A stretch of DNA of 64,000 bases, taken from the IMG/VR virus record IMGVR_UViG_2870083564_000004, positions 34,943 through 98,942 of that record. One strand, 5' to 3'. This DNA is from a virus (Duplodnaviria > Heunggongvirae > Uroviricota > Caudoviricetes). A program made the translations under genes and the position numbers. Numbering within the stretch: position 1 is the stretch's first letter; every line of letters starts with the position of its first letter. This document shows, piece by piece, positions 1 to 64,000 of the stretch. A model generated the notes under the pieces. The model saw only the letters and a list, made by a program, of their open reading frames with translations. It had not been told where the DNA came from and did not search any database.

Positions 1-60
1 AGCGCGTTCTTTGCGACTTGTCACGAAACGAAGGATGGCTGGAAGCCGGTCGAAGCGGGT

Positions 61-624
61 GTGGGGGTGATGTATCGGGTTCATCTGCGAAAACTGAAGT
101 CCCCCTTCGACAACTACATACCGCTTGGGCCGCAGCGCCTACCTCGACCAAGTGAACAGTGCGCGTGGGTCACCGCGCTTCCATTTTGTCATTCGTTCGA
201 GGGATGGCCGGGTGTCGAATTATTGCCGTTCGAGCACGATCGGCATGTCGGCCAGCACTTCTTGGAAATGTTCGAAGGTGGCGGGCGGTTGTTTCCGCCG
301 GACCCGCTGGCCGACGTTGCCGCTGAAATTCTGGCTTGCGGCGAAATCCCGAGCGACATCGTTGAGGCTGCACTAGAGTCGTATGCAAAATACCGCTACG
401 GAATAATTTCCGAGCATCTACCGGCTTTGCGCAAGGAGATTTCGGCACTCGCGAATCTAGTTGAATACCGACGACTGCTGACGGAGCAGCGGATTGCCCC
501 TCTTCTAGCGGACCCAAATTGGGTTGAGCAGATGCTTGGAGCGGTAACGGCGAAAGCAGTCGCGGTAAGCCGTGTGAAAATTTCACCGTCTGATTCAGCC
601 TCGGAAGCTGACTCGGCCACTTGA
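61..624 (+). CDS. hypothetical protein (possibly 5'-truncated by window)
   Basis: 187-aa ORF from the six-frame track with GTG start; no motif I recognise. Lies outside the inferred prophage. Confidence 0.3.
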   Translation: MGVMYRVHLRKLKSPFDNYIPLGPQRLPRPSEQCAWVTALPFCHSFEGWPGVELLPFEHDRHVGQHFLEMFEGGGRLFPPDPLADVAAEILACGEIPSDIVEAALESYAKYRYGIISEHLPALRKEISALANLVEYRRLLTEQRIAPLLADPNWVEQMLGAVTAKAVAVSRVKISPSDSASEADSAT

Positions 625-976
625 TACTTCAAGTCTACAAGCCATCGTTATGATCAAAAAATCGATGCGTCGAACCGCTGCGACTATTGGCGCCGTAGCG
701 ACGGCGTTTTCTGCCACCATGTGGCACGTCTCAGCGAAGGCGAGCATCGCGGCTTCAACCTTACCGGCAACCGCAGACAAGGCAATCCGGTCGCTTCAAA
801 CCCTTTCGTTGCAAGAGAATCTTTGGGCGGCACAGGGAGCGGTTGTCGCTGGAATCCTGTTCGCCGTCGCTATTTTTCTTGAGGACGATTGATTTGGAAG
901 TCCCCGCGTCGTGAGCTATCGCGCTCTTAACATTCGTGGCTGATACCTGCCAGCACGCTCCTGATCATTCTGCCGA

Positions 977-1552
977 ATGCCAATCAATCTTAATCCCACA
1001 CCGCAGGACAGGGCCGCGATGCAAGCCATCGAGAACTTGGTGAATGCAAAAAAGCTCAGCGACCTGAGGAAGATTTGCAGGCGGGCGGTGATTACTGAAG
1101 CAGCCTTCGCCGACTTCATCATGGCTTGCGATTCGGGACTGCTGCGCCCTTGGATACACCACATTTCGTATCGGGATTTCCTGCCGAACTGGCGGTGGAC
1201 CGACGATGACGCGAAGAAAGTCGGGGACATGGACAACGGCCCGTTGACCGAGATGCAAACGAAGGCGATGCGCAAGTGGTATCAGCTTCTCGAAGAGCGC
1301 AGGTATCTCGTCGGACACATCTTCTATCTACCGGATCACTCGAACTGGCAATTCTTCTATTTCGACAATCGCGACGTGTGGCAGCACAAAAATCACTTCA
1401 AGGGTGGACCACACATGCACCTTATCAACCATCTGTGGCCGAACAAGACAGCGGAATCGGTCTGGAATGAATTCAGGGACGGCAATCCCGACATGAAGGG
1501 TGCCGAGCACATACGGTTCGATCGTCCGTATCAACGGCCCCCGCAGTTATGA
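977..1552 (+). CDS. hypothetical protein
   Basis: 191-aa ORF with non-repetitive composition, directly upstream of a CoiA-like gene on the same strand. Confidence 0.4.
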   Translation: MPINLNPTPQDRAAMQAIENLVNAKKLSDLRKICRRAVITEAAFADFIMACDSGLLRPWIHHISYRDFLPNWRWTDDDAKKVGDMDNGPLTEMQTKAMRKWYQLLEERRYLVGHIFYLPDHSNWQFFYFDNRDVWQHKNHFKGGPHMHLINHLWPNKTAESVWNEFRDGNPDMKGAEHIRFDRPYQRPPQL

Positions 1553-1606
1553 AAAGTCCGCTGTCGAGACGCATGTTTCACGAATTAGGCACGAAGGGGG
1601 CGACAG

Positions 1607-2440
1607 GTGCAGTTCGCTATTGTTGAAAATCAGCGCAGCGAGGCGTTTCCGGGCGGCCAAGGTGTTTGCCCGACATGCGGCGCGGCCACCATTGCGAAAT
1701 GTGGCCCGCGCGTCATGCATCATTGGGCGCATGCTAGCCGCCGCGACTGTGATCCGTGGTGGGAGAACGAAACGCCGTGGCATCGAGAGTGGAAAAACCT
1801 ATTTCCAGCGGCTTGCCGAGAAATTTCGCACGTTGCGCCTGACGGCGAAATCCACCGAGCGGACATCAAGACGCCGACAGGCATCGTTGTCGAAATGCAA
1901 CATTCCGCCATGACCGATGTCGAGCGGACTTCCCGCGAAGTGTTCTACCGGAATCTCGTATGGGTCATTGACGGGCGCGGATTCCGGCAGAACTTCGACA
2001 TTTACCACGCGCTGCCGGACCCGGCGTCGGAGTTGGCGCGCGATCTGGTTTGGGCGAAAGCACGGCGAGGGTTGCGGGGTGCAGCTGGCGGGATGTTTTT
2101 TAGACTAACCGAGTGCCACGTACACAATCCGAACGCTACCAAGGCGGACTTGGGCGACGGTTTGCATCGAGTTCACTGGATAGATGAAATCGAAGAGGAG
2201 CTAGGGCGCGTGTATAGCGGGCACCATCAATACGATTGGGTTCGACCACGCGGCACTTGGCTTGATGCCGCATGCCCGGTCTACATCGATTTTGGCGAGG
2301 ATTGGCTTGCACAACTCACGACGTATGACGAATCGGGGCTGCGCTGCATACGGTATGTCGCAAAGAGGAAATTCGTGCACGATGCCATGGTCGAGACCGA
2401 TGCCCGCGCTATCGCAACGCGTTTCTATCCGATCCGTTAG
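1607..2440 (+). CDS. CoiA-like competence/nuclease family protein
   Basis: N-terminal zinc ribbon (CPTCG...C), an HHWAH motif and an E-M-Q-H-S motif that resembles the CoiA EIQxS core. Call is from memory of the family only. Confidence 0.4.
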   Translation: MQFAIVENQRSEAFPGGQGVCPTCGAATIAKCGPRVMHHWAHASRRDCDPWWENETPWHREWKNLFPAACREISHVAPDGEIHRADIKTPTGIVVEMQHSAMTDVERTSREVFYRNLVWVIDGRGFRQNFDIYHALPDPASELARDLVWAKARRGLRGAAGGMFFRLTECHVHNPNATKADLGDGLHRVHWIDEIEEELGRVYSGHHQYDWVRPRGTWLDAACPVYIDFGEDWLAQLTTYDESGLRCIRYVAKRKFVHDAMVETDARAIATRFYPIR

Positions 2441-2595
2441 GCGCTTGCAGGCGTGACATGCCGAGCGACGCATGTTGACGGCTGCGCAAGGCGCAGAAGT
2501 CAAAGCCAAGCGAGCGGCGAGCGGCGGGCGCGACGGCTCCGTCTTAATACGGAAGCCATTGCCATCGGCGGCTCATAAATAATGAGGTAGATCGA

Positions 2596-3243
2596 ATGGA
2601 TACAGACTTGCAGTTGTTGATGGCCGAGGCGCGACGCTCCGCTATCGAAAGGGCCGAAAAAGAATACAAGCTGCAATGTGATGTCTTTGATTCTGCCGAC
2701 CGGAAGGCACAGGGAACGACAACTATTGCTGGGGCATTGCTGGCTGCTGACTTAGGCTTTGTCGCCAAGCTTACAGATACACCGAGCGCTCTAGCAATCG
2801 TTATCCTGCTTTTGATCACTGGCGCCCTCGGGTGTAGCGTCCTTTCGGCGCTGTGGGCGCTGTATGCGCGTGATTCACACGTTCCTGCGACCGGTGGCGA
2901 ATGTGAGTCAGGTTACTTGAAGTTGATCTCACAGGCTTCCATTGGCAATTTTGCGACTGCGGAAATCGAATTGCTGGACTTCATCATCGATAAGCTGAAC
3001 AAGGCGAACGAGTCAGTGACGAAGGTCGCGGCTACTAAAGCAAACTGGGTTCATCGCTCACAGCAGGCTCTTATCTTGGCTGCGGCAGCAACCATAGTTC
3101 TTACGACGGGTTTGATTTTCGATCCGAAGCTGCTGACCCTTGCCACAACGGTTCAGGTAACGCCAGCCTCTGGGTCTCACGCTTCAACTAACGCTGCTGT
3201 GTCGGCTCTGGTGGCTCCGCTCCGGCCGGGTCTCTCGCGGTGA
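2596..3243 (+). CDS. membrane protein, unknown function
   Basis: 215 aa with at least two strongly hydrophobic helices (IVILLLITGALGCSVLSALWAL, ILAAAATIVLTTGLIF). GC is lower than the surroundings. Confidence 0.4.
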   Translation: MDTDLQLLMAEARRSAIERAEKEYKLQCDVFDSADRKAQGTTTIAGALLAADLGFVAKLTDTPSALAIVILLLITGALGCSVLSALWALYARDSHVPATGGECESGYLKLISQASIGNFATAEIELLDFIIDKLNKANESVTKVAATKANWVHRSQQALILAAAATIVLTTGLIFDPKLLTLATTVQVTPASGSHASTNAAVSALVAPLRPGLSR

Positions 3244-3328
3244 AGCCCGTTTGCCAATGCGAACCGCTCAGCGTCCACAGACTCCCTAAAGCCTTCGTAT
3301 GGAGTCGACGGAGATTGCCAACCGAACT

Positions 3329-3799
3329 TTACAGGTCTGCGATCGGAGACAGTTTTTCGGTCGCGACGAATTGAGCAAGACGGGTGCGAGCCGTCGCGAT
3401 CAGATGGGCTGGTACATTCGTCAACTGTCGATCGTGCATCAGCAGGATGTGCTCGACAGCGGTGCGACCACTGGAGGGAATTTCAAAGGCCCCGGTTTTC
3501 TTCGCGGCAACCGCACATTCGACCACTGCGGTTTCGGCGACCCGGAACTGTTCTAGGTCGTGACGACCTACTGTCGCCTCATGGATGAAGTAGGCGACGT
3601 AGATCGTCTGAAATATCTTGCTGACGGCATCGGTGGTACCGTTATTGCCGCTCTGCAATGAGGCAAGGGCAAGGTGATGTTCCAGTGACTTTTTGCGGAC
3701 TATGGCCGCTGGTAGGGGCAGCAACATGTCCTTGGTCATCGGTGCCTTGCTTCGGCGGGTTGAGGATTTCGGGCGGGGCTTCATAGCTATCGTGAGCAA
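3329..3799 (-). CDS. hypothetical protein
   Basis: 156-aa ORF; no confident family assignment. Confidence 0.3.
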   Translation of the reverse strand: MLTIAMKPRPKSSTRRSKAPMTKDMLLPLPAAIVRKKSLEHHLALASLQSGNNGTTDAVSKIFQTIYVAYFIHEATVGRHDLEQFRVAETAVVECAVAAKKTGAFEIPSSGRTAVEHILLMHDRQLTNVPAHLIATARTRLAQFVATEKLSPIADL

Positions 3800-3960
3800 G
3801 GGCGGTGCGTCTTACCTTTATGGTCGAACAAGATCAACTTTAACAACGGGACACGTTGGCTTGGTGTCCGAGCGCTGCCGCGTTCAGAGGGAGAGCGAAA
3901 ATCGGCGAAGGGGCGAATTCGCGTCTGATGATGGGGTGCATGATGGGTCAAAAAACAAAA

Positions 3961-3995
3961 AGCCCCGCAGATCATTGATTTTGCGGGGCTTTTTC
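3961..3995. terminator. bidirectional intrinsic-terminator-like hairpin
   Basis: The sequence aaaaaacaaaa-AGCCCCGC-loop-GCGGGGCT-ttttt has a GC stem flanked by A/T runs on both strands. Confidence 0.5.
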
Positions 3996-4003
3996 GATAT
4001 TTC

Positions 4004-4045
4004 TGGCGGAGAGAGGGGGATTCGAACCCCCGAGGGCCATCTGAA
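4004..4045 (-). other. tRNA 3'-end fragment (tRNA-Ser-like T-arm, acceptor and CCA); candidate prophage att-site copy
   Basis: The minus strand reads ...GGGGGTTCGAATCCCCCTCTCTCCGCCA, a T-stem-loop plus 7-nt acceptor 3' strand, G discriminator and CCA. No complementary 5' acceptor (GGAGAGA) or D-arm lies upstream, so this is a fragment and not a gene. Confidence 0.5.
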
Positions 4046-4251
4046 AATTAAGGGTTCGCGGGCGGTGCGATCCCAATTCCTGTCATTGTTCGCCATCCCG
4101 ATCTCAGCCTTCGCCGCTCGAATACCAGCGTCTACTGCCACTTCACAGTAACGACACGGCGCACTTCACGCTCACTCCGAACATCGAGTTCTTGCCCATT
4201 GATTGTTGGCGCCACAAAAAACTGAAGCCCCGTCTTTACGGGGCTTCTAGA

Positions 4252-4695
4252 CTACCTGCCGCTTGCGCCAGGTTTAGGCGGAGTTCGTACAGTCTTCCCG
4301 ATGACAAACACTGAAACCAGGCTAACAAGTGTTGCGCCGCCAATTCCAACTGCCGCCCAATCATGGCCCATGACCGCAAGTAACGCGGCAATACCGAGCC
4401 CAATTACGCCGATAACGAATCCGGACAGAATGCCCGCCATGCGCTCAACAAATCGGAAAGTATTGACCCGGTGCGCCTCCGACCGGCGAAATTCGCCTTC
4501 GACGCGCGCCTGCTCAAATACCCATTCGACCTTATCAGGAGCAATTTCCTTCAGGCGCTCGATCTGCGCCATCGGAAGGAGGGGCGCGTCAGTTTCGTGA
4601 TGCGATACAGTGAGACTCCGGTCTTTATCCTTCACCTGTGCCGTTGTTTGTCGCCCCATTTTTTCCCGTGAGACAGTAGTAAGACTGCCGTTCAA
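4252..4695 (-). CDS. membrane protein (DUF2335-like)
   Basis: Conserved-looking N-terminal segment (LPMAQIERLKEIAPDKVEWVF) followed by two TM helices, with a hairpin/T-run terminator just downstream. Confidence 0.4.
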   Translation of the reverse strand: MNGSLTTVSREKMGRQTTAQVKDKDRSLTVSHHETDAPLLPMAQIERLKEIAPDKVEWVFEQARVEGEFRRSEAHRVNTFRFVERMAGILSGFVIGVIGLGIAALLAVMGHDWAAVGIGGATLVSLVSVFVIGKTVRTPPKPGASGR

Positions 4696-5139
4696 CGCGC
4701 GCCATTACGCGCCGCATATCTGCCCCGGCAGCCTCAAAGTCTCTCGCTTGGTCGCCTCTGCGGGGGATTTCGTATTGTGGAAAACTACCAAATGCGTTCA
4801 GCGACAAACCCATGCCAGCCAAGGCTTCGAGCAAGTGCTTCATTGCTTTCTCCAATCGGTCGACAGGAAGCCCCAAGCTAGGCGCACAAGCGCCTCTCAA
4901 ACATATGACAAAAAGCTAGGGGGTGCTTGCATTGTACCCTCGAAACTAAAACCGCGTACTTGACAAGGCAAAAAAACTCCAATCAAGTTCAATTATCGGC
5001 AGCAGACGCCTGAACTCAAGATAGGGGCGGCACGAATGTATAAAAACGGATGCGACAAATTGACGCACCGAGCGCCGTTCCGCGCCCGAAAAGAACCCGG
5101 AACCATTTTCCGTAAGCCTCACCTCGCCTTGAGGTCCGA

Positions 5140-5829
5140 TCATTCCTTGAGGCGTGCTCCTGAGTCAAGGTCGGCGACCATCCCGTCAGCGGAATAGAGT
5201 TGCAACATCGCGCGAGCGGCCTCGACGTTCGACGTCGTGAGCCATTCTCCCCAATCGTCCGGCCGAAGTATGACGATCGACCGCTTTTCGTCGCCCGGCT
5301 TGTGCATGCGCGACATGATGGCATGCCCTTCGGCATTCACCGTGATCATCGACATCGCGTGCGATTCGTTCCCGTCCGTGCCCGTCAACGTGCGCCAGAT
5401 CCCCGCGACGCAGTAGGGCCGCCAGCCCGTCAGGCCGATTCGATGCCAGACGTTTCGGCCGGTCTCGTAGCACGGCTCGTAAATCCATCGCACCGGAATC
5501 AGGCAGCGGCGACCTGCGCGCCACGCCGGCCCGTATAGCGGCGATCGCCCAAGATTGTCATCGCGCACGTTCATCGTGCTACGCATGATCGGCGGCTTCT
5601 TGCCCTCCTCTTTCGCCTTCTCGATGTTCGCCTTCTGCAAGGCGCGCGGCCAGTAGCCGAACCCAGCGAGAATCGCCTCGACGCGCCCATTGACCATCGC
5701 CACGGTGGGCGCGAGATAGTCCGGGTAAATCTCAGGCTCCCAAGGCGTTCTCTTCCATAGGTCGATTAGGCCAAGCCGTAGCTCGCTGATCCCCGGATCT
5801 TCGTCCGGCGCGCGGTAATTGGTGCACAC
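5140..5829 (-). CDS. SOS response-associated peptidase (SRAP/YedK, DUF159)
   Basis: The GTG start gives M-C-T-N-Y with the catalytic Cys at position 2. SRAP-like blocks are present (RRCLIPVRWIYE, MITVNAEGHAIMSRMH, RPDDWGEWL). The track ORF extends 15 codons further upstream. Confidence 0.6.
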   Translation of the reverse strand: MCTNYRAPDEDPGISELRLGLIDLWKRTPWEPEIYPDYLAPTVAMVNGRVEAILAGFGYWPRALQKANIEKAKEEGKKPPIMRSTMNVRDDNLGRSPLYGPAWRAGRRCLIPVRWIYEPCYETGRNVWHRIGLTGWRPYCVAGIWRTLTGTDGNESHAMSMITVNAEGHAIMSRMHKPGDEKRSIVILRPDDWGEWLTTSNVEAARAMLQLYSADGMVADLDSGARLKE

Positions 5830-5880
5830 GGCGGCACCTCTTTTCAGGGGATGGATCACTTCATCATAGTCCAAGATATA

Positions 5881-5896
5881 CTGTATAAAATTACAG
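5881..5896. promoter_or_regulatory. LexA (SOS) box CTGTATAAAATTACAG
   Basis: Perfect CTGT-N8-ACAG with an AT-rich spacer, in the 85-bp gap between the divergent SRAP gene and ORF 5915. Confidence 0.5.
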
Positions 5897-5914
5897 GCCT
5901 TCCCGTATTACGAA

Positions 5915-6556
5915 ATGATCCTGCCACCGTTCAATCCACCCAAGCTACCCGAGATGACTGAGTGGTGGACGCGCTGCACATATGCGGACGTCCAGCGTCT
6001 GATTCTCGAAGTTCAGCACCAGCGCCTCACTTTGTGGGAGCTTCGCAGCTGCATTGCCGATGCGTCGCGGCGGGTACGCGCGATCGACCCATCGTTGCTT
6101 GAGTATGGCGCGCCGCTACGGAGGCTCGGCTACATCGTCGACAAGGAAATTGGTCGTGCCGCCCCGTTCGCTCGCATGCGGGAACCGGTCGCGCCGTTTT
6201 CCGACGAGTGGCGTGCACGGCAAGAAATCAGGTCAAAGCGCTGGGAGTCGCCGGACGACACGCCACCCGGCGCATCTCCGAAATCAATCCCAGAGTTTCA
6301 GCGGGTAACGTGGGAAGAATTGCGCGAGAAATGGCGTTTCGAGGAAGGCAAGAATGTCGGCCGGCACACGCTCGAGCAACGCATGGCGCTCGAGATCGCG
6401 TATTTGCGAAGCCACATTGTCGGAAAGTCGCGAAAGCTCGTCGATGCAGCCCGGGTTGAAGCAGAGAAAAGCGGTGTGGAGTTGTTCGCGCTAGACCATC
6501 TGAAACGCCTTCTCGAAGTCGAGCGCGACGAAGAGGCGTTCTACCGCATCACGTAG
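5915..6556 (+). CDS. hypothetical protein
   Basis: 213-aa ORF with ATG start, divergent from the SRAP gene across the LexA box. Confidence 0.4.
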   Translation: MILPPFNPPKLPEMTEWWTRCTYADVQRLILEVQHQRLTLWELRSCIADASRRVRAIDPSLLEYGAPLRRLGYIVDKEIGRAAPFARMREPVAPFSDEWRARQEIRSKRWESPDDTPPGASPKSIPEFQRVTWEELREKWRFEEGKNVGRHTLEQRMALEIAYLRSHIVGKSRKLVDAARVEAEKSGVELFALDHLKRLLEVERDEEAFYRIT

Positions 6557-6690
6557 CAGGGACGATACGATGAACGACCAGGGCTCACTCGATGAGATGC
6601 AAAGGCCAGCTTGACTGCGGCGAACACCACTCTCGCCGGCTTCCGTACTGCCCACCAAAAACGGAAGCGGCGTGGCGAACTGCCGACGCG

Positions 6691-7809
6691 TCAAACTGGA
6701 TCGCCACTATCGATCGGAATCGAGCCTTTGGGCAAACGTGGCGTTTTGAGGACCGCAGCTTTCGCACTGAGCAATTCGTCGTCGCCCACCTCGAAGCGGC
6801 GCAGCCACGCTGCCGTTGATTCGCGCGTGTTGTAGACCGGCGCGCCGGCGTTGACCGTGCCGCGCTGAAGAATGTCCATGCTTTCCGCTCGCACACGCCG
6901 CAGTGCCTTATCGAGGACGACGTAGGCTGGTGGCAAGAACGGGGGTTGCTCCTCGCGCTCAGAGAGCCCCGACTCAGGCAACACGCCCGCACGGATGATA
7001 ACGCCGGCACCATAATCACCAATGGCAAACCAATTCGGGGGAAGTTCCGACGTCAGCGCGCGAACGCCGCCGACAGTGTCCAACATGGGCTTGCCGATAG
7101 CTGTCAGCCAATTGACGGATTTAATTTTGCCCTTCAGATCGCGGGCTGAAGTCGATCCGGGGTCGCCGACATCGAGCCCCGGCATAATTTGCGCGATCCA
7201 GTATTCCGTCGCCTCATTCTCGTGAGGAGCGGTCGGGGAAAGGTTGACGGCGAAGCCCGCCTGACCTTGAACGGCATCTAAGCGGCGCGCAGCATCAAAG
7301 AACAGTTTTGCGAAGGCATCGGGGTTCTCTTGGACAGCCACAACCGGCCATGAGAACGCTAGGGAGTTGAGACCGCGGTTGCCCATCTTCTCTTGCCACT
7401 GGCGCTGACCCACGACCTCGAATCTCCAAAAACTTGCGTCCGAAGCTTGCTCCCCGCCAACGTAGCAGAAGTCGAAACGATCCTCAGGACCGAGCTTACT
7501 GGCGGCGGCACGCAGAGGCTTGGCCCGCGCGAACGCCTGCGCCACCTTCCCGTTACTCCATAGGAACGTCAATTTGCATTCGGGTACAGCACAGTAGTCG
7601 TCGAAACAGTCGGCAACCGCCGCGCGGACGGCGGGATCGAATGCACGCTCAAAATAAAGCGACGCGCGCACGACGACGGCCGCTCCGATTCCACCGGTTG
7701 CGTAGCGAGGTTCCAAAAGACCATTGGGCACCAGCGCTTTGCCCTGATTGGCCTTCGCCCATTCGAGAAAATTCTGATCCATATTCGCGTCGATGCTAGG
7801 AAGGCTCAA
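6691..7809 (-). CDS. putative immunity protein for the upstream nuclease toxin
   Basis: 372-aa ORF that starts (TTG) directly after the toxin stop codon. Its position matches toxin/immunity pairs; the Imm-family assignment is not certain. Confidence 0.4.
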   Translation of the reverse strand: MSLPSIDANMDQNFLEWAKANQGKALVPNGLLEPRYATGGIGAAVVVRASLYFERAFDPAVRAAVADCFDDYCAVPECKLTFLWSNGKVAQAFARAKPLRAAASKLGPEDRFDFCYVGGEQASDASFWRFEVVGQRQWQEKMGNRGLNSLAFSWPVVAVQENPDAFAKLFFDAARRLDAVQGQAGFAVNLSPTAPHENEATEYWIAQIMPGLDVGDPGSTSARDLKGKIKSVNWLTAIGKPMLDTVGGVRALTSELPPNWFAIGDYGAGVIIRAGVLPESGLSEREEQPPFLPPAYVVLDKALRRVRAESMDILQRGTVNAGAPVYNTRESTAAWLRRFEVGDDELLSAKAAVLKTPRLPKGSIPIDSGDPV

Positions 7810-8544
7810 TTATGGAACGACTATGGGGGGCGGCGGCAACGGCAAGCCACCCATGCCAGGCGGGATAGCAGGACTGCGGTTAAGTAGCTGACGCAGGGAA
7901 CGCCCGAGTTCGGAGAGCGCCTCAGAAACCGCTCGGAGCGGACTTTCATTGGCGTCATCGTCGGAGCAGTCACAGTCGCCGGGGCCCATAGTCGCAACCT
8001 TTTCGGGCGAACCCGCAATCCGTGCGTAGTCGTCCTCTTGCTCGCGATCCCTTTCTTGAGGCGGGAATTTAATCTCCACCACGCTCTTGATGTTGTCCTG
8101 AGTTGGCGGCAGAGATCCGTCCTTGACAATCACCACGTCGGGGCGCCGAACAGCACCGGCGCCCGCGGGATACGCATCTTTCCCGCCAGGCCAGTATTTT
8201 TGAATCCAGCCTGGCAAGTAAGGGTGCGGCTCCAAGGGAGACGCGGAGCGCATGATCGGCGACGGAGGGATCTGCGTCATGTCGTAGTTGACTTCCGACT
8301 TGTACGGGCTCTTCCACCCCATAGACCGATCCACGTCGCGCAGGTTGCGCGAAACGCACTGCTGCTTGAGGCTTTGGCGCGATGCACCAGTGTCTGGCTC
8401 TCGACTGCATACACAAACGGCCTTGCAGATGACCTTTTTATCGACCGGGTCGGGCGTAGCGGGCCGAAGACGCACGGGCGTCGTTTCGCCCTTCGGCGAC
8501 ATGCCACCTTGACCGGAGTTGGCTCCGTAGGCACGACCACTCAT
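7810..8544 (-). CDS. putative PD-(D/E)xK-fold nuclease toxin (PAAR-associated effector)
   Basis: Contains RRPDVVIVKDGS...VVEIKFPP, a D...(E/D)xK arrangement. Its ATG overlaps the PAAR stop as ATGA, which indicates translational coupling. The track ORF allows a longer N-terminus up to 8622. Confidence 0.45.
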   Translation of the reverse strand: MSGRAYGANSGQGGMSPKGETTPVRLRPATPDPVDKKVICKAVCVCSREPDTGASRQSLKQQCVSRNLRDVDRSMGWKSPYKSEVNYDMTQIPPSPIMRSASPLEPHPYLPGWIQKYWPGGKDAYPAGAGAVRRPDVVIVKDGSLPPTQDNIKSVVEIKFPPQERDREQEDDYARIAGSPEKVATMGPGDCDCSDDDANESPLRAVSEALSELGRSLRQLLNRSPAIPPGMGGLPLPPPPIVVP

Positions 8545-9101
8545 AAAACACCGCCTTCGCCGGGCCCCTGAGTCGACTCGGCTGAAAATTGCAACGATCC
8601 AGCCGTGTTTGCCTCGTGCCACTGCGTGTAGCCGTCGGCGTCGGTCTGGCCAGATATTGTCCGGCCGTCCGCTGTTTGCAGAACGTAGGGATGGTTCGCG
8701 ATCGGTTTTCCAGTCGTCTCGTCAAATACCTGGAAGCGCCCACGGTATAGATTGTCCGGCCCTCGTGGCATCGACTGCGGAACGACGCTCTTCCCACCGC
8801 CGATCGAATTGCCGCCAGCGGCCCCTGATGTAGGGGCCACCGTGGCGAAGCCTTGCGACGCGATAAGCGTTGCCCCACACGCGGTCTTGTCTCCGTCTGT
8901 AGCAATCGGCCTGTCACCAAACGTCATGTTCAACTCGCGCTTTACGCTGACGATCGGGTAAATCCCACCACATCGCGGACACGTCACCATGTCGCCAAGC
9001 AATGCGATTGCCCTTCCATGAACCGTGTTGGCGACATTACAGCCGACCACACGCCCCCCATGCGTGGTCGTGTCTCCCTCGCAAATAAACGCAAACCCCA
9101 T
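8541..9101 (-). CDS. PAAR-domain protein
   Basis: N-terminal FICEGDTTTHGGRVVGC...GDMVTCPRCGG matches the PAAR repeat logic (GDxTxHGG ... GDMxxCP). Confidence 0.6.
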   Translation of the reverse strand: MGFAFICEGDTTTHGGRVVGCNVANTVHGRAIALLGDMVTCPRCGGIYPIVSVKRELNMTFGDRPIATDGDKTACGATLIASQGFATVAPTSGAAGGNSIGGGKSVVPQSMPRGPDNLYRGRFQVFDETTGKPIANHPYVLQTADGRTISGQTDADGYTQWHEANTAGSLQFSAESTQGPGEGGVL

Positions 9102-9282
9102 GTCGAAGTCTCCACAAGGAAATTTTCGGTGGAATGTAGCACGGGGGAAATTGCCGGAACCACCCTGTCAGACATGACAGGAATCCAAATCCGTAATTCC
9201 GCGAACACCGGAATTGGATCAAAACAATGCACCCGATTTTGGATGCAAAGCCCCGGTCGAGCGACCGGGGCAACTGAACGAA

Positions 9283-10161
9283 CTATTTCTTTTCCGGCTC
9301 GATCCCCCAGCACTGCCCCGCTCGCTCATACTCAGGAATTGCCTCGGGATTATGTTTGCACTTGTCAATAGTATCGAGCGCCGTATGGTAATTGATCACG
9401 AGCGGATCGACGATGCGGCTGATCTGCTCGTCTTGCGCTGACTGGTCCGGAGTGGAACAGTCATCGCCCATGTGCCCGGGATTCGACTGATAGACTCCGC
9501 CGACCGTCAAGAACGATACCGCTCCACTACGAGATGCAGAGTTGATCGCCCCGTACAGTGCCCGTGACGCGGTCGGATATCGGCGCTCATGAGCAAAACC
9601 CGCCGCGTCGATGAACCGCTCGACCCGCTCCGGCTGGCATGACACGATGGGCAAAACAGCATGCACAACGCGCCCTTTCAGATACTCGCGCGCGCCGTAC
9701 ACAGCGAGATCTTGCTTGAACTGATCGACCGCTGCCTGCTTCTCGGGTGTGTCGATGTAGCCCGTCATGTCGTCGAACTCGAAATTCATCAACACCCATT
9801 CGCTGACGTTGATATTCGCGTTGAATACCTCGTCGTGCGTAGGACCAACGCCGCCGTTCTCCGCCATCACCAGTTGATGCAATGCAGTTCCGTCGACGAC
9901 GCCGGGATACACGCCGATATCGGCACCGCGCGCCTTAAACGCGTTCTGTAGCGCATCGATAGTTGCTTGCGTACTCGACACGACTCCACCGCCCGTCGTC
10001 GACGCAGCTGCAGCCATCACACGAGCGGAATGCGCCGCGACGATCGGTGCCCCTGAATACGTCAACTTGATCGCTGGACTGGACGCTGTCGGCCCGTCGT
10101 TCCCGCCCCCACACGCTACCAGCGTCGCCGCCACCACTACCGCAATGATCGTTTTCTTCAT
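9283..10161 (-). CDS. lipoprotein, unknown function
   Basis: Signal peptide plus lipobox (LVAC) at the N-terminus, and a hairpin terminator immediately downstream. Confidence 0.5.
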   Translation of the reverse strand: MKKTIIAVVVAATLVACGGGNDGPTASSPAIKLTYSGAPIVAAHSARVMAAAASTTGGGVVSSTQATIDALQNAFKARGADIGVYPGVVDGTALHQLVMAENGGVGPTHDEVFNANINVSEWVLMNFEFDDMTGYIDTPEKQAAVDQFKQDLAVYGAREYLKGRVVHAVLPIVSCQPERVERFIDAAGFAHERRYPTASRALYGAINSASRSGAVSFLTVGGVYQSNPGHMGDDCSTPDQSAQDEQISRIVDPLVINYHTALDTIDKCKHNPEAIPEYERAGQCWGIEPEKK

Positions 10162-10269
10162 TTTGATCTCAGGTTCTTATTGATATTCCATGCCCCGCGG
10201 ACGAAATATTACACAACAATTACGAAACCCTTCCGCAGACATAGACGAGCAACGCGCGCAGCCAATCGA

Positions 10270-11058
10270 TCAGAACAGCCCGACTGGCTGCGCCGCATCG
10301 TCCCAGCTGAAAATGATCAGCTCGCGGCGCTCGACGCCCTTCCCGCCGCCTATCGTGTACTGAATCGGCACACTCTCGATATGGAAGCCGGCGAACACGC
10401 GCCGGATCTCGGGATGGTCGTTGAGGCTGACGATCGCCCGCCCCTTGATCGACCGCAGCCGCTCGGCCATCTTCTCGTATTCCGCGAACGGAAACGCAAC
10501 GCCGTAGCCTTCGGTCTCGAAATACGGCGGGTCGAGGTAGAACAGCGTGTGCGGCCGATCGTAGCGATCGATGCAGGTCGCCCAATCAAGCCGCTCGATG
10601 TACGCGTTCGCGAGGCGAATATGCGCCGCCGATAGCTCCTCCTCGATGCGCAACAGGTTGAGGCCGGGCACCGACGTTGTCGCCGTTCCGAACGTCTGCC
10701 CTTCGAGCTTGCCGCCAAAGCAACTTTTCTGAAGGTAGTAGAAGCGTGCCGCGCGCTGGATATCGGTGAGGGTTTCCGGGGCCATGTGCTTGAGCCATTC
10801 GAACACCTGCCGGCTCGTCAGCGCCCATTTGAACTGACGCACGAACTCTTCGAGATGGTGCTGAACAACGCGATACAGGTTCACCAGCTCGCCGTTGATA
10901 TCGTTGATCACCTCGACCTTGGCCGGCGGTCGCATGAAGTACAGCGCCGCCCCGCCCGCGAACACCTCGACGTAGCAGTCGTGCTTCGGAAAGCGCGGGA
11001 TGATGTGATCCGCGAGACGACGCTTGCCGCCGATCCAAGGGATGATGGGATTTGCCAT
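10270..11058 (-). CDS. Dam-like N6-adenine DNA methyltransferase (D12 class)
   Basis: Starts MANPIIPWIGGKRR and has FAGGAAL (motif I) and LDPPY (motif IV). The track ORF has a 62-codon Arg-rich upstream extension. Confidence 0.75.
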   Translation of the reverse strand: MANPIIPWIGGKRRLADHIIPRFPKHDCYVEVFAGGAALYFMRPPAKVEVINDINGELVNLYRVVQHHLEEFVRQFKWALTSRQVFEWLKHMAPETLTDIQRAARFYYLQKSCFGGKLEGQTFGTATTSVPGLNLLRIEEELSAAHIRLANAYIERLDWATCIDRYDRPHTLFYLDPPYFETEGYGVAFPFAEYEKMAERLRSIKGRAIVSLNDHPEIRRVFAGFHIESVPIQYTIGGGKGVERRELIIFSWDDAAQPVGLF

Positions 11059-11201
11059 TGTGAAAGCCGTTTTTAAACTTGATGTAGAATCCGGCCCGCC
11101 TACGTAGGTAAGCAGGGCCTTGGCCTCTTTCACTGGCGCTATCAGTGGAAAGGCGGCCGGCATGCGTGTTCCCGCACGCACGCCGGCCGCCCTGTTTCTC
11201 G

Positions 11202-11747
11202 TTACTTCCGCGCGCAGTCCGGCGTCTCGGGCCGCACCGCGCATACATAGCCCTGTAGGGCCGTCAGTTTGTCGATCTCGCGCTGATCGTCGCCGGCGAC
11301 GCCGAAAACGCGTTCCGCAACCGCTGCGTCGACGTCTGCGTAGGTGGCGGCACCATCGCCCATGCCGGCGGCGCTGGAAGCGCCGGGCACGCCGTCGCGA
11401 CCGGCTGCCGTGCAGTTTCGGACGGCGACGCGCAGCCGCTCAGTGCCAGCGGCAAGAGCAGCCCGCAGGCTGCGATTCTCTGCTTCATGCTCGTTCCTCT
11501 CCTTCGTGGTTCGTTGGTCGACGGCGGCCACCGCCGACGCGGCGGCATCGTGCGCGGCGATCGCCCGCTGCTCGGCGTCGAGCGCGGCACGCGAGATCGC
11601 GCCCAACGCTTCGGCGTGCCGTTGCGCGGCGCGAGCGCGCGCGGCCTGCTCATCGGCAAGCCGACGTACGCCGACCAGGTGATCGACGCCAGCGCCGGCC
11701 GCCATGCCAAGCAGCGCGGCCATCAGATAGGGTGTTGCTTTCGGCAT
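11202..11747 (-). CDS. Rz-like i-spanin
   Basis: N-terminal TM (YLMAALLGMAAGAGV) followed by an Ala/Arg-rich coiled coil. The start overlaps the endolysin stop as TGATG. Confidence 0.55.
   Translation of the reverse strand: MPKATPYLMAALLGMAAGAGVDHLVGVRRLADEQAARARAAQRHAEALGAISRAALDAEQRAIAAHDAAASAVAAVDQRTTKERNEHEAENRSLRAALAAGTERLRVAVRNCTAAGRDGVPGASSAAGMGDGAATYADVDAAVAERVFGVAGDDQREIDKLTALQGYVCAVRPETPDCARK
11264..11488 (-). CDS. Rz1-like o-spanin lipoprotein (embedded in Rz, +1 frame)
   Basis: MKQRIAACGLLLPLALSGC lipobox followed by a Pro-rich sequence, lying wholly inside the Rz ORF. Confidence 0.5.
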   Translation of the reverse strand: MKQRIAACGLLLPLALSGCASPSETARQPVATACPALPAPPAWAMVPPPTQTSTQRLRNAFSASPATISARSTN

Positions 11748-12238
11748 CACAGCCCCCGTTCGCAAATTGCGCGCTCCGTAGCGCGGCGTTTCACGAGACC
11801 CGGCAGCACTCGACCGCCGGCAGTCACCCACTGCGGCCGACCGTTGTCCGACTCGTTGATCGCGCGGCACGCGCCCCGCCAGTCGCCAGAATTGAACCGC
11901 CTCGCGGTTGTGCTTCCGCAGTAGGCTCGCGGCCCGATGTTGTAGGCGAAGCTCACTGCAGCCGCGAGCTGATATGTGCGCCCCCTCAAGCCTGGCGTGC
12001 ACGTCAGCACCGGCTTCGCGTGCTCAATGAGCCGTTGCTCGAGCCGAGCGCGGCATTCATCACGCGTGAAGCGCTGGCCGACGTACACGTCTTTCGTATC
12101 GCCATTGCACGCCGTGATGATGCCGATCGGGTCTGGTCGTGCGACGAGGACCTCGCCCTCAAATGCAGGGACGATAGAAAGCAAAAGGGCCGCTGTCGCG
12201 GCCCCTACCAATCCAATCAGCGTCTTCTTCTCAGCCAT
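11747..12238 (-). CDS. SAR endolysin (GH24 / T4-type lysozyme)
   Basis: N-terminal signal-anchor-release helix (LIGLVGAATAALLLSIV) followed by FEGEVLVARPDPIGIITACNGDTK with the catalytic E/D/T. Confidence 0.7.
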   Translation of the reverse strand: MAEKKTLIGLVGAATAALLLSIVPAFEGEVLVARPDPIGIITACNGDTKDVYVGQRFTRDECRARLEQRLIEHAKPVLTCTPGLRGRTYQLAAAVSFAYNIGPRAYCGSTTARRFNSGDWRGACRAINESDNGRPQWVTAGGRVLPGLVKRRATERAICERGL

Positions 12239-12443
12239 CGTGATGCTCCAGTTCACGCAGGCGTGCGGCCAGTTCGACTTGCTCTCGACGGTCCTTGCGC
12301 CGTGCGAAGTAAAAATTCAAACCGAAAGTCGCGATCGCCGTGAGAATACCGACGATGACGCCGATATCGGTCAACGTAAGCGACGACGCGACCGACGCTA
12401 TGCTTCCCGCATAGCTCACGGCTTCCGTAGGACTAGCTCGCAT
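12231..12443 (-). CDS. class II (pin)holin
   Basis: 70 aa with two TM helices and a charged C-terminus (FARRKDRREQ). Resembles phage 21 S21 pinholin, the type paired with SAR endolysins. Confidence 0.55.
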   Translation of the reverse strand: MRASPTEAVSYAGSIASVASSLTLTDIGVIVGILTAIATFGLNFYFARRKDRREQVELAARLRELEHHDG

Positions 12444-12485
12444 CCACTCCTCGCAGAAATGAAAAAGCCGCCCAAAGGCGGCGCA

Positions 12486-13220
12486 TTAAATGATCCCGGT
12501 TCCGTCCAACACCATGAATCGATAGTGCCAACATTCGCGAAACGTTGCGACATTGGGATGTCGGCCGCCGTTGTATAGCAGCGTCCCCCAAGATACGTTG
12601 CCGCCGCTCACCCGCACGGCGCTTATCTCAAGGATGTCCCACAGCCGCTGATTGCTGTTCGACGATCCCCAAATGAAATGCGCAGGCCACATTCCCGAAA
12701 TCAACACCGGACGACCATACGATCGCTGCTGCCATTGAGGACTCGGAGCACCCTCCACCGTCCAGCCCGTTCCATTCATGTAGACATCCTGAATCACGTC
12801 GAGCACACGGTAAAACGGCGTCAACGCATCTGCAATCAATTGACTGCGCTCGTTGAACACCTGCAGTCCGAATCCCCGGTCCGCCGGCGGGACGTTGGAA
12901 AACACAAAGAAGCGCACGGTGGCCTGAGTTTCGGTAATGAAGCGCACCGTGTAGGTCCGCCCGTCGTTGCTATAGGCGTCCCAAATCGATATCCCCACTC
13001 CCGGGTCTGCGGAGAACGCATATAGCGGAACTTCGGCAGAGAATGTGAACGAGCACACCCAAAATTGCCCTTCGTAGGGAATATTTTTGTCATTCCTGAC
13101 CGTCTCAATACGAATCAGTTGCGATATCGCCACCATCGACTGAACGAGTTGATAGTTCGGCGTCGAACCGTCGATCTGAAACACGCCCCCTTCCGTAAAG
13201 GCTTGGAATCTGCCATCCAT
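12486..13220 (-). CDS. hypothetical protein downstream of J
   Basis: 244-aa ORF with clean, non-Arg-rich composition. Confidence 0.45.
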   Translation of the reverse strand: MDGRFQAFTEGGVFQIDGSTPNYQLVQSMVAISQLIRIETVRNDKNIPYEGQFWVCSFTFSAEVPLYAFSADPGVGISIWDAYSNDGRTYTVRFITETQATVRFFVFSNVPPADRGFGLQVFNERSQLIADALTPFYRVLDVIQDVYMNGTGWTVEGAPSPQWQQRSYGRPVLISGMWPAHFIWGSSNSNQRLWDILEISAVRVSGGNVSWGTLLYNGGRHPNVATFRECWHYRFMVLDGTGII

Positions 13221-48821: not shown

Positions 48822-49209
48822 GCTTGAAGATTCGGTGATCCACGCGCTCGATCTCGTGCCGCTCGACACGGCCGTCTTCGAGCGTCTTCACGATCTCCTG
48901 TCCGACGTCGCCGTGCGTGGACCACGCCTTGCCCATCAGTTCGACGATCGCGGCGTCGCAGCAGTCCACAGCGCTCGGCAACTTCACGAGCGCATAACCC
49001 CGCGCCGTAGCCCACGCTTCGAGCATCCGATCGTCGTCGGTCACGTCCGTCGCGCGAACCGCGTCAGCGAGCCCGAGGTGATGCGTAGCGTTGTTTGGGT
49101 TCACCTTGTTCCGCAGCACCGCCGCCGACATACCAAGACGCGGCGCGAGCGACTCACTGCCGCCCGGGTAATCGTGAACAACCGCGTATGCGGCGTCGAT
49201 GATGTTCAT
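48769..49209 (-). CDS. CII-like regulator (Phage_CP76 family)
   Basis: AAYAVVHDYPGGSESLAPRLGMSAAVLRNKVNPNNATHHL. Confidence 0.6.
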   Translation of the reverse strand: MNIIDAAYAVVHDYPGGSESLAPRLGMSAAVLRNKVNPNNATHHLGLADAVRATDVTDDDRMLEAWATARGYALVKLPSAVDCCDAAIVELMGKAWSTHGDVGQEIVKTLEDGRVERHEIERVDHRIFKHAQVLLDISARLRGMAE

Positions 49210-49392
49210 TCAATCCTCATCTGAACGTTGTTCGTCACGGTAAGGACTACTAAAGTGTGTCCCTATGACGTGAACGAAATTTCAACTTCCTCGACCACGC
49301 CATGCAGGCGCGATCTACTGCATTGGGCGAGGGTCCCGGACTTTCGTCTTAGAATTGGCAGCTCTCAAACAACCACTTCTCTACGGGCCCTC

Positions 49393-49629
49393 ATGGAAGT
49401 TCCAAACCACGAACTCGAAATTCTTGCTAACCGCGTCCTCATTCAAACGATCATTGCGGCACTCGAAGTGGCGCATCCCGGCTCCGAGGCAACGATCAAA
49501 CGGCTAATTGAGAAATTCACTCAGGTCGACGGCCTAGACCTATTGAGCGAAAAGATTGCCGAGATTGCTTTGCGGGTCGTCTCTAACGAGCCCGAGAAAC
49601 CAACTCTGACGCTCGTAAAGTCCGACTAA
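49393..49629 (+). CDS. hypothetical protein
   Basis: 78-aa ORF with lower GC, antisense to the cro-to-cII transcription direction. Confidence 0.25.
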   Translation: MEVPNHELEILANRVLIQTIIAALEVAHPGSEATIKRLIEKFTQVDGLDLLSEKIAEIALRVVSNEPEKPTLTLVKSD

Positions 49630-50120: not shown

Positions 50121-50126
50121 GCGGCA

Positions 50127-50369: not shown

Positions 50370-50450
50370 GGTGAAAGTATAGAAATTTTAAACACCAGAA
50401 GTCAAGCAATACAACACCCAACTAGTTAAGGTTTTCTTTACTCTCTAACC

Positions 50451-62627: not shown

Positions 62628-62921
62628 ATGATCGCGGCCTTCGCATCCCGGTATGTCACCGTGCTCAAGTTCTGTGACATGACCGGCTATACGGAAGACG
62701 CGGTGAAATCCAAACGCCGCGATGGTGTGTGGCTAGAAGGACAACTGTGGATTAAGGCGCCGGACGGGCGCATTTTGATTGATATCGAGGGGTATGAAAG
62801 ATGGGTAGAAACGGCACGGGTGTCCGCGCCATTAGTGGCAGTTCGATCGAAGTCACCTTCACCTATAAGGGCGTCCGTTGTCGCGAGCGCATCCGCCTCG
62901 AGCCCACGCCCGCTAACCTAA
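62628..62921 (+). CDS. xis: excisionase-like protein (DUF1233-type)
   Basis: YVTVLKFCDMTGYTEDAVKSKRRDGVWLEGQLWIKAPDGRILIDIEGYERW. The reading frame runs 121 nt into the integrase start. Confidence 0.45.
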   Translation: MIAAFASRYVTVLKFCDMTGYTEDAVKSKRRDGVWLEGQLWIKAPDGRILIDIEGYERWVETARVSAPLVAVRSKSPSPIRASVVASASASSPRPLT

Positions 62922-64000
62922 AAGCGGCTGCCAATTTTCTCGGTGCGGTTCGCACCGCCATCGCAAACGGAACTTTCGACTACCGAGTTTCCTTCCCGGA
63001 GTCAAAACGGATAGCGCAGTTCGTCGAGCGGCAAGGCGATGCCCTGATGGTCGGAGCGTTCCTAGACACGTGGCTTGAACGGCAGGAAAACGTTCTAGCG
63101 GCCAGCACGATCGAGGGTTACAAAAAAATCATCAAGGGGACTCTGAAACCTGCGTTCGGCCATCTTGTAATGTCGGACGTGCGTCGCTCCCACGTACGCG
63201 AATGGGCTTCGAAGCAGAAATTCGGCAATAAACGGATGACCAACGTGCTGTCGGTTTTCCGTGCGGCGCTCGCCGAGGCCGTGCAAGACGAGATCGTCGA
63301 GACAAACGTTCTGTACGGGTGGACGTATCAGCGAAACGACGCCCCGGGCCGAGACGACGATGTCGATCCCTTCACCGCGGAGGAACAGGCTGCGATTCTC
63401 GGCGCGATGGTCGGGCAAGAAAAAAATCTGTTCCAGTTTGCGTTTTGGACTGGCCTGCGGACATCCGAGTTGATCGCCCTTCAGTGGAGCGACGTTGATT
63501 GGGAACGCGGAATCGTTCGCGTGCAACGGGCACGGACGCGAGCTGCTCGCGTCGCTAAGAAGGTCGAGGACACGAAAACGCGCGGCAGCCGCCGCAACGT
63601 AAAGTTGCTTGAGCCCGCACTCGCCGCCCTTAACGACCAAAAACGATTCTCTTCGCTTCTCGGTGGCTCGATCTTCCTGAATCCTCGAACCGGCGAAGCG
63701 TGGAGCGGCGACAACGTGATCTGGCTAGCGTGGAACCGCGCCATTGAAAAATCGGCAGCGCGCTACCGTCGCCCTTACCAGACGCGGCACACCTACGCGA
63801 GTATGATGCTGTCGGCTGGCGAACCGCCGATGTGGGTCGCTAGCCAGATGGGCCATATCAGCCTAAAGATGATCGAGCAACGATACGGCCGATGGATCAA
63901 GGACGCGGCGCCCGATGCCGGAAGACGAGCTGAAGCCTTATTCGGCGGCGCTGTCGCGCGCGCTCGAAGGGCGACTGACGGGTCGGGGGGAAACGACTGA
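62801..64000 (+). CDS. int: tyrosine integrase with N-terminal arm-binding domain
   Basis: N-terminal RAISGSSIEVTFTYKGVRCRERI...GTFDY arm-binding domain (DUF3596-like), and a C-terminal catalytic domain with R...HxxR...Y (RHTYASMM...GH). The stop falls at the window end. Confidence 0.85.
   Translation: MGRNGTGVRAISGSSIEVTFTYKGVRCRERIRLEPTPANLKAAANFLGAVRTAIANGTFDYRVSFPESKRIAQFVERQGDALMVGAFLDTWLERQENVLAASTIEGYKKIIKGTLKPAFGHLVMSDVRRSHVREWASKQKFGNKRMTNVLSVFRAALAEAVQDEIVETNVLYGWTYQRNDAPGRDDDVDPFTAEEQAAILGAMVGQEKNLFQFAFWTGLRTSELIALQWSDVDWERGIVRVQRARTRAARVAKKVEDTKTRGSRRNVKLLEPALAALNDQKRFSSLLGGSIFLNPRTGEAWSGDNVIWLAWNRAIEKSAARYRRPYQTRHTYASMMLSAGEPPMWVASQMGHISLKMIEQRYGRWIKDAAPDAGRRAEALFGGAVARARRATDGSGGND

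Follow-up and report, generated by a model that had tools for sequence, protein, structure and literature searches.

A PAAR, nuclease and immunity gene module as probable type VI secretion cargo in a phi1026b-like Burkholderia prophage

The stretch of DNA analysed here (64,000 nucleotides of the viral record IMGVR_UViG_2870083564_000004, called the window) is filled for the most part by a siphoprophage of the phi1026b/phiE125/phiBt-TXDOH type of the Burkholderia pseudomallei group (genus Stanholtvirus, lambda-like siphoviruses). We were interested in three consecutive genes on its minus strand, encoding a PAAR protein, a nuclease toxin and an immunity protein, which are probably an orphan type VI secretion system (T6SS) effector module, of the PAAR2-cluster type, carried as a lysogenic-conversion moron of this phi1026b/phiE125-like temperate siphovirus. 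An earlier note, drawn up from the sequence alone, had proposed a T6SS PAAR effector-immunity arrangement in a siphovirus prophage, with a PAAR-domain protein at 8541-9101, a PD-(D/E)xK-like open reading frame (ORF) behind it and the ATG of the toxin overlapping the PAAR stop codon. All of these elements were recovered, with a PAAR protein, a nuclease of the VRR-Nuc type and a member of the dedicated TsiV immunity family encoded on one strand of a prophage of the phi1026b/phiE125 type.

Genes of the module

The module comprises the following features:

8541..9101, minus strand: PAAR-TTR protein, putative spike tip/adaptor, 186 amino acids (PF05488, structural model)
8541..8544, minus strand: ATGA overlap of PAAR stop and toxin start (read in the sequence)
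7810..8544, minus strand: nuclease toxin, very likely of the TseV type (VRR-Nuc/PD-(D/E)xK), 244 amino acids (VRR_NUC match, catalytic motif)
6691..7782, minus strand: TsiV (DUF3396) immunity protein, most likely 363 amino acids (PF11876, PDB 7DRG)

The product of the first gene matched the PAAR_motif profile (PF05488) far above threshold, with 75.6 bits against a cutoff of 27 (E-value 3.5e-21) and over the whole profile (positions 1-70 of 70). In its structural model (pLDDT 78), the N-terminal part forms a conical beta-structure like that of c1882 or T4 gp5.4, covering approximately residues 8-81 (8859-9080) and followed by a Gly-rich linker of low confidence and a C-terminal TTR/immunoglobulin-like beta-sandwich of approximately residues 98-165 (8607-8810). 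A weak sequence match of this C-terminal domain led to the TTR region of VgrG2b (6h56, E-value 0.039); Pfam searches with the isolated C-terminal region, as with the isolated N-terminal region of the toxin, gave nothing useful. Residues H14, C41, C44 and C75 were invariant among 25 homologues, as would be expected of a PAAR metal site. Since the TTR domains of VgrG1 and VgrG2b have been implicated in effector loading (PMC7376260), the TTR-like domain of the PAAR protein may reasonably be taken to hold cargo.

The toxin carries the PD-(D/E)xK signature E84 ... RRPD136VVIV ... VVE157IK159 (codons of D136, E157 and K159 at 8137-8139, 8074-8076 and 8068-8070), and among 120 homologues its four key residues E84, D136, E157 and K159 were kept in 99-100% of cases. 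When 5.8 billion proteins were searched, 330 relatives came up, belonging to Burkholderia, Paraburkholderia, Duganella, Massilia, Pseudomonas and others, nearly all between 225 and 247 amino acids long and most with a precomputed VRR_NUC match; a Pseudomonas homologue of 241 amino acids was 48% identical to the toxin of the window. When 20 aligned homologues were compared with VRR_NUC, 19 matched (E-value up to 0.01; best 2.7e-9). An AlphaFold model built from the homologue alignment showed a restriction-endonuclease-like fold, with residues 31-100 and 131-195 predicted at a pLDDT of 75-92 and both termini disordered, and its best structural match was Cas4. The single toxin sequence found no match among PDB sequences. 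We regard the nuclease fold of the toxin as established and its membership in the VRR-Nuc/TseV family as very likely.

Six cysteines of the toxin (C40, C44, C46, C63, C191 and C193) flank the nuclease core and were at least 97% conserved among the 120 homologues. The pattern was largely kept in homologues of 37-45% identity from Sorangium, Akkermansiaceae and Methylococcaceae, while one Rhodovulum homologue lacked part of it. As these six residues are conserved and Cas4 is the best structural match, the cluster could be a metal (Zn or Fe-S) staple in the TseV subfamily, which would be new for T6SS nucleases; the cysteines are not mentioned in the paper on the TseV proteins of Salmonella bongori (PMC9635880).

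The third gene lies directly downstream of the nuclease gene, as in most of the 80 loci of the survey described below. Its product matched the TsiV profile (PF11876) with 216.6 bits against a cutoff of 25 (E-value 5.3e-64, profile positions 1-271 of 271), aligned over almost its whole length (residues 28-337, E-value 5e-58) with the crystal structure of PA0821 from Pseudomonas aeruginosa (7DRG), and is named 'type VI immunity family protein' by NCBI (WP_085504470.1). The families matched by the toxin and this protein, VRR_NUC and TsiV, are not the Tox-REase and Imm families that the earlier note had expected. Housekeeping homologues, which the note had named as speaking against its proposal, were not what the downstream gene turned out to have, as it belongs to the TsiV immunity family. 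Toxin ORF and following ORF share a reading frame and are separated by a single TAA, which is immediately followed by TTG (7807-7812), so that the immunity ORF appears nine codons longer than is probable. The 372-amino-acid ORF described earlier as starting right after the toxin stop does exist as the maximal ORF from TTG 7809; the start at ATG 7782 (363 amino acids) is used by RefSeq and other gene calls, leaves a spacer of 27 nt behind the toxin gene and brings the protein into register with the 362 residues of PA0821 (query residue 28 corresponding to PA0821 residue 30). TsiV therefore most likely starts at ATG 7782.

At the other junction the PAAR stop codon TGA (8541-8543) overlaps the toxin ATG (8542-8544), reading '...GTT TTA TGA' in the one frame and 'ATG AGT GGT' in the other. 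Such a 4-nt overlap (ATGA or GTGA) was found in 58 of the 70 homologous loci having both PAAR and toxin genes and also in the phages Mana and KL3, and five Acinetobacter loci showed an overlap of 8 nt. We infer that the ATGA overlap couples the translation of PAAR protein and toxin.

Distribution of the module and selection

One genome per prokaryotic species was surveyed, which gave 80 loci with a relative of the toxin. In about 70 of these a PAAR homologue stood immediately upstream and a TsiV homologue immediately downstream, in Burkholderia, Paraburkholderia, Massilia, Duganella, Pseudomonas, Acinetobacter, Xanthomonas and other beta- and gammaproteobacteria. A conserved fourth gene was not detected, as 11 candidate ORFs upstream of PAAR were unlike one another and unlike the lipoprotein encoded there in the present prophage. 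Diverged alleles of the module were also located in integrase-linked, non-phage islands of B. pseudomallei and B. thailandensis, with toxins of 73% and 49% identity and with the 4-nt overlap kept.

Among 50,697 phage records, 43 were matched by TsiV, namely 16 phi1026b-like siphoviruses, about 25 P2-like Burkholderia phages (the phiE12-2 group, KL3, Mana, Menos, Carl1 and PK23), one Pseudomonas phage and one unannotated 4.3-kb 'Bacteriophage sp.' contig from human faeces. The match in the Pseudomonas phage was to TsiV only, and the PAAR search of the phage records found no Pseudomonas phage. In Carl1 (2039-4475 of its locus), a PAAR-TTR gene is followed by a shorter ORF of 159 amino acids, possibly a truncated or variant toxin, and then by a DUF3396 gene. 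Since the same unit occurs in two unrelated phage architectures and at non-phage loci, the comparison argues strongly for an orphan, horizontally mobile cargo rather than siphovirus tail hardware.

The cassette is under strong purifying selection in the phage lineages. Compared with phiBt-TXDOH, the ratio of non-synonymous to synonymous substitutions (dN/dS) was 0.058 for PAAR, 0.042 for the toxin and 0.058 for TsiV (dS 0.35-0.52), and the three genes are at least as constrained as the endolysin gene, for which dN/dS was 0.145. These values bear on the possibility that this prophage carries the cassette as a remnant, hitchhiking or in decay, which at present serves no function; we consider this very unlikely. 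It is true that orphan T6SS modules are often gained and lost, with losses of tseV exceeding gains in P. aeruginosa (PMC11751169), that an IS66 insertion lies in the prophage, which may itself be degenerating, and that the toxin of the window scores slightly below the Pfam threshold. A remnant, however, would hardly show three intact ORFs with conserved catalytic and Zn-ligand-type residues and dN/dS values of 0.04-0.06 across phage lineages; moreover, the module was present in all 16 phi1026b-like phage records found, relatives of the cassette proteins at 90% identity occurred on hundreds of B. pseudomallei-group contigs, and the orthologues in phi1026b are strongly expressed in the lysogen (PMC2920897).

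Carrier prophage, attachment site and gene neighbourhood

The 2.7-kb cassette region was 97.2% identical in DNA sequence to gp27-gp30 of phi1026b, 97.1% to phiE125 and 88-92% to phiBtTUL1a and phiBt-TXDOH. Identical toxin and immunity proteins occur on CP018381.1, and the NCBI protein names point to the pseudomallei group. Around the cassette, and at the opposite prophage end, the following features were assigned:

10270..11058, minus strand: Dam-type N6-adenine methyltransferase, 262 amino acids (PF02086, E-value 1.2e-25; phi1026b annotation; gene call)
9283..10161, minus strand: gp27-like lipoprotein, 292 amino acids, lipobox LVAC (phrog_8011, function unknown; no Pfam match)
5915..6556, plus strand: gp31-like protein of unknown function (phrog_17852; phi1026b gp31/gp32 annotation)
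5140..5874, minus strand: SRAP-family protein (PF02586, E-value 1.5e-18; phi1026b gp31/gp32 annotation for the pair with the gp31-like gene)
4005..4040, minus strand: 3' fragment of a tRNA-Ser gene (…GGTTCGAATCCCCCTCTCTCCGCCA), copy of the attachment site (att) (sequence; end of phiBt-TXDOH homology)
62801..64000, plus strand: tyrosine integrase at the opposite prophage end (Arm-DNA-bind_2 and Phage_integrase)

Homology to phiBt-TXDOH ends at 4004, and as the attP of that phage is annotated as the 3' end of tRNA-Ser-GGA, the prophage boundary was placed at 4005-4040. A terminator-like hairpin was noted beside this tRNA-Ser fragment at approximately 3960-3995. An exact repeat search detected no second att copy within the window, which is explained by the other prophage end falling just past 64000: the match to phiBt-TXDOH reaches position 64000, approximately 110 bp before the attP of that phage. 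Nor did ARAGORN and Rfam detect an intact tRNA or RNA family in the 64 kb, and the second att copy and the intact tRNA gene must lie just beyond 64000, beside the integrase. With the att fragment at one end, and the integrase and the phiBt-TXDOH match to 64000 at the other, the prophage therefore extends from about 4040 to slightly past the end of the window.

The gene order is tail J - holin - endolysin - Rz/Rz1 - Dam - lipoprotein - PAAR - nuclease - TsiV - gp31-like - SRAP - small ORFs - att, with Dam, downstream of the lysis genes, as the phage-late edge of the cargo region. The earlier note had described the cassette as cargo next to the lysis and Dam genes at the prophage end. The cargo part of this description held, whereas the gene of the 292-amino-acid lipoprotein intervenes between Dam and PAAR, and the cassette is not at the very end of the prophage, as 2.6 kb and three to four genes (gp31-like, SRAP and small ORFs) lie between TsiV and att; in lambda-like phages this is a region of non-essential cargo. 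The lipoprotein gene, immediately upstream of PAAR, is limited to phi1026b-like phages; it was not found at the 80 non-phage loci and stands outside the conserved three-gene module. The moron hallmark of a distinct base composition was absent along the prophage, as the G+C content of 0.595-0.61 across 6001-9000 made no clear break at the cassette against 0.58-0.70 in the rest of the prophage. NCBIfam profiles gave no match for any of the nine proteins searched. An SRAP gene, for an abasic-site-shielding protein, follows a little way downstream of the module here, and likewise in Mana, an unrelated phage of the P2-like type, and at a chromosomal locus of Achromobacter (L085 15-731; L054 12838-13242); this may be chance or a loose link with a toxin that damages DNA.

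For phi1026b, RNA sequencing of a lysogen has been reported (Ronning et al., PMC2920897), in which phi1026bp28-31, corresponding to lipoprotein, PAAR, VRR-NUC and DUF3396, reached 199,000, 186,000, 132,500 and 77,624 RPKM (reads per kilobase per million mapped reads), and the lipoprotein gene phi1026bp28 ranked with the prophage genes of highest expression. In the same lysogen, the genes for portal, capsid and tape measure were at 1,000-4,700 RPKM (PMC2920897). These data show that the phi1026b cassette is expressed in the lysogen independently of the late operon. Scans for sigma-70 promoters and terminators over 4000-12500 gave counts near the shuffle expectation and are uninformative in such a high-GC genome.

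Gene position and expression also bear on the question whether the PAAR protein might be the structural tip of the phage's own tail, with the nuclease injected together with the phage genome. The GenBank annotators of Mana and PK23 did name the homologue 'baseplate spike protein' or 'baseplate protein', and P2-like Ralstonia phages have short PAAR-only genes. We nevertheless find a tail-tip role scarcely credible: the tail of the carrier, a lambda-like siphovirus, has a tip of the J type, the PAAR gene is not in the tail module but close to att, downstream of the genes for lysis and Dam, lysogens express the orthologue and keep tail genes silent (PMC2920897), the PAAR-toxin-immunity unit recurs at many loci with no phage genes, and an immunity gene would be needed only if sister cells were targeted. 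That PAAR is cargo and not a tail part, as the earlier note had proposed, is supported by the about 70 non-phage loci, the P2-like phages and the expression in the phi1026b lysogen. As to the Ralstonia-phage genes, their products of approximately 85 amino acids have no TTR extension, are encoded near the genome start and may be true spike tips.

Relation to known systems

The same genes are found in the same place (lysis - [Dam] - lipoprotein - PAAR - VRR-NUC - DUF3396 - gp31 - SRAP - attP - int) in phi1026b (gp28-gp30), phiE125 (gp29-gp31), phi644-2, PhiBP82.1, phiBtTUL1a and phiBt-TXDOH. The present prophage differs from phi1026b by its tRNA-Ser site, which it shares with phiBt-TXDOH, whereas phi1026b is at tRNA-Pro, by its SRAP-att region and by an IS66 insertion. 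The cassette genes have been in GenBank since 2002-2004 with phiE125 (AF447491) and phi1026b (AY453853). RefSeq labels their products 'PAAR domain-containing', 'VRR-NUC domain-containing' and 'DUF3396 domain-containing' or 'type VI immunity family protein', and the annotations of phiBt-TXDOH and phiBtTUL1a already include a 'T6SS PAAR-repeat protein'.

In chromosomes, the closest likeness is to the PAAR2 cluster of P. aeruginosa, reportedly described by Wang et al. in 2021 in FEBS J (cited through other papers) as PAAR2-TseV PA0822-TsiV PA0821. This cluster has, arranged in the same way, a separate PAAR, a VRR-Nuc protein of approximately 240 amino acids and a DUF3396 immunity protein, and is likewise an orphan mobile island with no vgrG and of variable presence. 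It differs in being chromosomal, not phage-borne, and the system to which it is assigned in P. aeruginosa is the H2-T6SS, with tseV, on a PAAR island, counted among the accessory effectors of that system (PMC11751169). The S. bongori effectors TseV2 and TseV3 are T6SS-delivered, Mn2+-dependent, structure-specific nucleases which lead to double-strand breaks and are neutralised by DUF3396 proteins (Hespanhol et al., 2022, PMC9635880). They share with the present module the pairing of a VRR-Nuc PD-(D/E)xK effector with a DUF3396 immunity protein, but in S. bongori the toxin itself bears a PAAR-like (DUF4150) domain, fused at its N-terminus, and vgrG is next to the genes, whereas here PAAR is separate, overlaps the toxin gene stop to start and carries a TTR-like domain.

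The only characterised precedent found for a phage-like PAAR-effector-immunity trio beside att and int is Aux3 of Vibrio cholerae, a prophage-like element mobile by site-specific recombination, in which PAAR2-TseH-TsiH lie beside integrase and att (Santoriello et al., 2020, PMC7721734). In Aux3 the effector is a peptidoglycan hydrolase and not a nuclease, and no tailed particles were recovered (PMC7721734), whereas the close relatives of the present prophage are GenBank phages with propagation hosts: both phi1026b-like and P2-like carriers are recorded as phages propagated on Burkholderia hosts, and the source of phiBt-TXDOH is given as 'plaques on B. pseudomallei BP82 lawn'.

For related Burkholderia elements, a 'PAAR2 cluster' has been described in the B. 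gladioli P2-like phages AB4 and Mana and proposed to arm the endogenous T6SS of the host (BMC Genomics 2026, PMC13366799), and a PAAR-nuclease-immunity island common to B. glumae and B. pseudomallei has been described as T6SS-associated (PLoS One 2025, PMC12755741). These elements are Peduoviridae or a non-phage island and their proteins are diverged (59% identity for PAAR, 36% for TsiV); neither paper discusses phi1026b-type siphoviruses or gives experimental evidence (PMC13366799, PMC12755741). The reading as T6SS cargo is therefore already annotated and already hypothesised for related Burkholderia elements, and what is added here are the family-wide stop/start overlap, the TTR-like extension of PAAR, the six-cysteine signature of the toxin, the strength of purifying selection in phage lineages and the occurrence of the module in two phage morphotypes.

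Interpretation

If the module works as an orphan T6SS effector cassette, a lysogen would transcribe it apart from the repressed structural genes, as suggested by the 97%-identical phi1026b orthologues, and PAAR protein and toxin would be made in linked amounts via the ATGA overlap seen in the sequence. The PAAR cone would then cap a VgrG of the host, with the TTR-like domain binding and carrying TseV, and the antibacterial T6SS of the host would fire the loaded spike into neighbouring cells. In the cytoplasm of the target the toxin, whose catalytic E…D…ExK residues are intact, would act as a Mn2+/Mg2+-dependent nuclease on branched or fork DNA and cause double-strand breaks, by analogy to TseV2 and TseV3 of S. 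bongori, while TsiV, as expected from its homology to PA0821 and TsiV3, would bind TseV and protect the lysogen and its sisters. The net effect would be that lysogeny confers both weapon and antidote, and that lysogens kill non-lysogenic kin and competitors on contact. It is established that B. pseudomallei-group bacteria possess several T6SSs, including an antibacterial one (Schwarz et al. 2010, cited through another paper).

Several points weigh against this reading. The toxin of the window, taken alone, falls below the Pfam gathering score for VRR_NUC (20.3 bits, E-value 6e-4, against 23.8), its model is of moderate confidence (mean pLDDT 68), Foldseek comparison of the model with the PDB gave no match better than an E-value of 0.9, and a profile of 20 toxin homologues found no match among PDB sequences. 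No VgrG was present among the nine largest ORFs tested upstream of related modules, which included a TonB receptor, a glycine dehydrogenase, an antiporter, a primase and a type I restriction subunit, and no T6SS gene was found within the 64-kb window. The expression data are from phi1026b in strain DD503 and not from this prophage (PMC2920897). In the literature consulted, no experimental demonstration of delivery was found for the subfamily with separate PAAR and a TseV of approximately 240 amino acids, and the P. aeruginosa protein was only 'suggested' as an effector, from its gene position (Hespanhol et al., PMC9635880). Finally, TsiV matched the phage-defence candidate family PDC-M20B of PADLOC (E-value 8.8e-15); toxin and PAAR protein gave no PADLOC match. 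Either a family of T6SS immunity proteins has been misfiled as PDC-M20, or there is a second role for DUF3396 proteins.

The PADLOC match would also fit an action of nuclease and TsiV inside the lysogen, in a toxin-antitoxin-like, anti-phage or superinfection-exclusion function, in which TsiV restrains a structure-specific nuclease that is released on infection to cut replication forks and PAAR is a passenger. Such an intracellular role would be in keeping with the company of defence-type cargo (Dam and a GmrSD-like gene in the prophage, a PycTM-like gene in the flank), with one B. pseudomallei island copy that adjoins AbiEii and a DNA methylase, with the name 'antitoxin' given to the DUF3396 protein by the annotators of phage Mana, and with the interpretation of the cassette as a restriction-modification moron by Ronning et al. 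(PMC2920897). We still consider it unlikely, as a spike-tip protein would be useless to an intracellular system and yet PAAR and toxin genes stand in line at about 70 of 80 loci, which span two classes of proteobacteria, with the 4-nt overlap in 58 of 70. Toxin and PAAR also stay outside all PADLOC models, the PDC families are candidates by defence-island association, where orphan T6SS effector-immunity pairs gather too, and the characterised TseV/TsiV pairs are T6SS-delivered (PMC9635880).

Going beyond the T6SS cargo reading itself, it is quite possible, if a tentative suggestion, that a T6SS nuclease ready for use is spread, together with its antidote, through the B. pseudomallei complex by temperate phages whose two morphotypes are unrelated, so that lysogens kill non-lysogenic kin by contact and the prophage is selected as a 'greenbeard', independent of lysis. 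If the module is functional, lysogeny by a common B. pseudomallei-group phage would shift contact-dependent fights among strains of this select-agent pathogen and its soil relatives, and the phage would gain a means of promoting the bacteria that carry it. A clean test case, workable at BSL-2, for the phage-mediated spread of T6SS weapons would then be B. thailandensis with phiE125 or phiBt-TXDOH.

Further observations in the window

Positions 1-4004 lie outside the prophage and are host or island DNA. The flank at 1-4000 (e.g. the genes at 2596-3243 and 1607-2440, both plus strand) resembles another island; it encodes a PycTM-like membrane protein (PF18967; PADLOC PycTM, E-value 7e-6) with no recognisable cyclase adjoining and a protein with a weak CoiA_N match, and FRG-domain and helix-turn-helix genes follow farther out in the source contig. 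Opposite the Rz/endolysin genes, an Arg/Pro-rich ORF of 407 amino acids (11120-12343, plus strand) was rejected as a gene, being antisense to them and a spurious long ORF typical of high-GC DNA.

Inside the prophage, a complete IS66-family transposase gene (E-value 2e-103) is located at 36116-37690 (minus strand). A stretch of lower G+C content contains the gene of a GmrSD_N (DUF262) protein of 523 amino acids (39799-41370, plus strand), probably a type IV restriction or defence moron. The lowest G+C content of the prophage was found across 49000-56000 (0.50-0.57, compared to 0.60-0.70 elsewhere in the prophage), which suggests more acquired cargo, and a Band_7/SPFH (prohibitin-like) protein is encoded within this part at 55416-56441 (plus strand).

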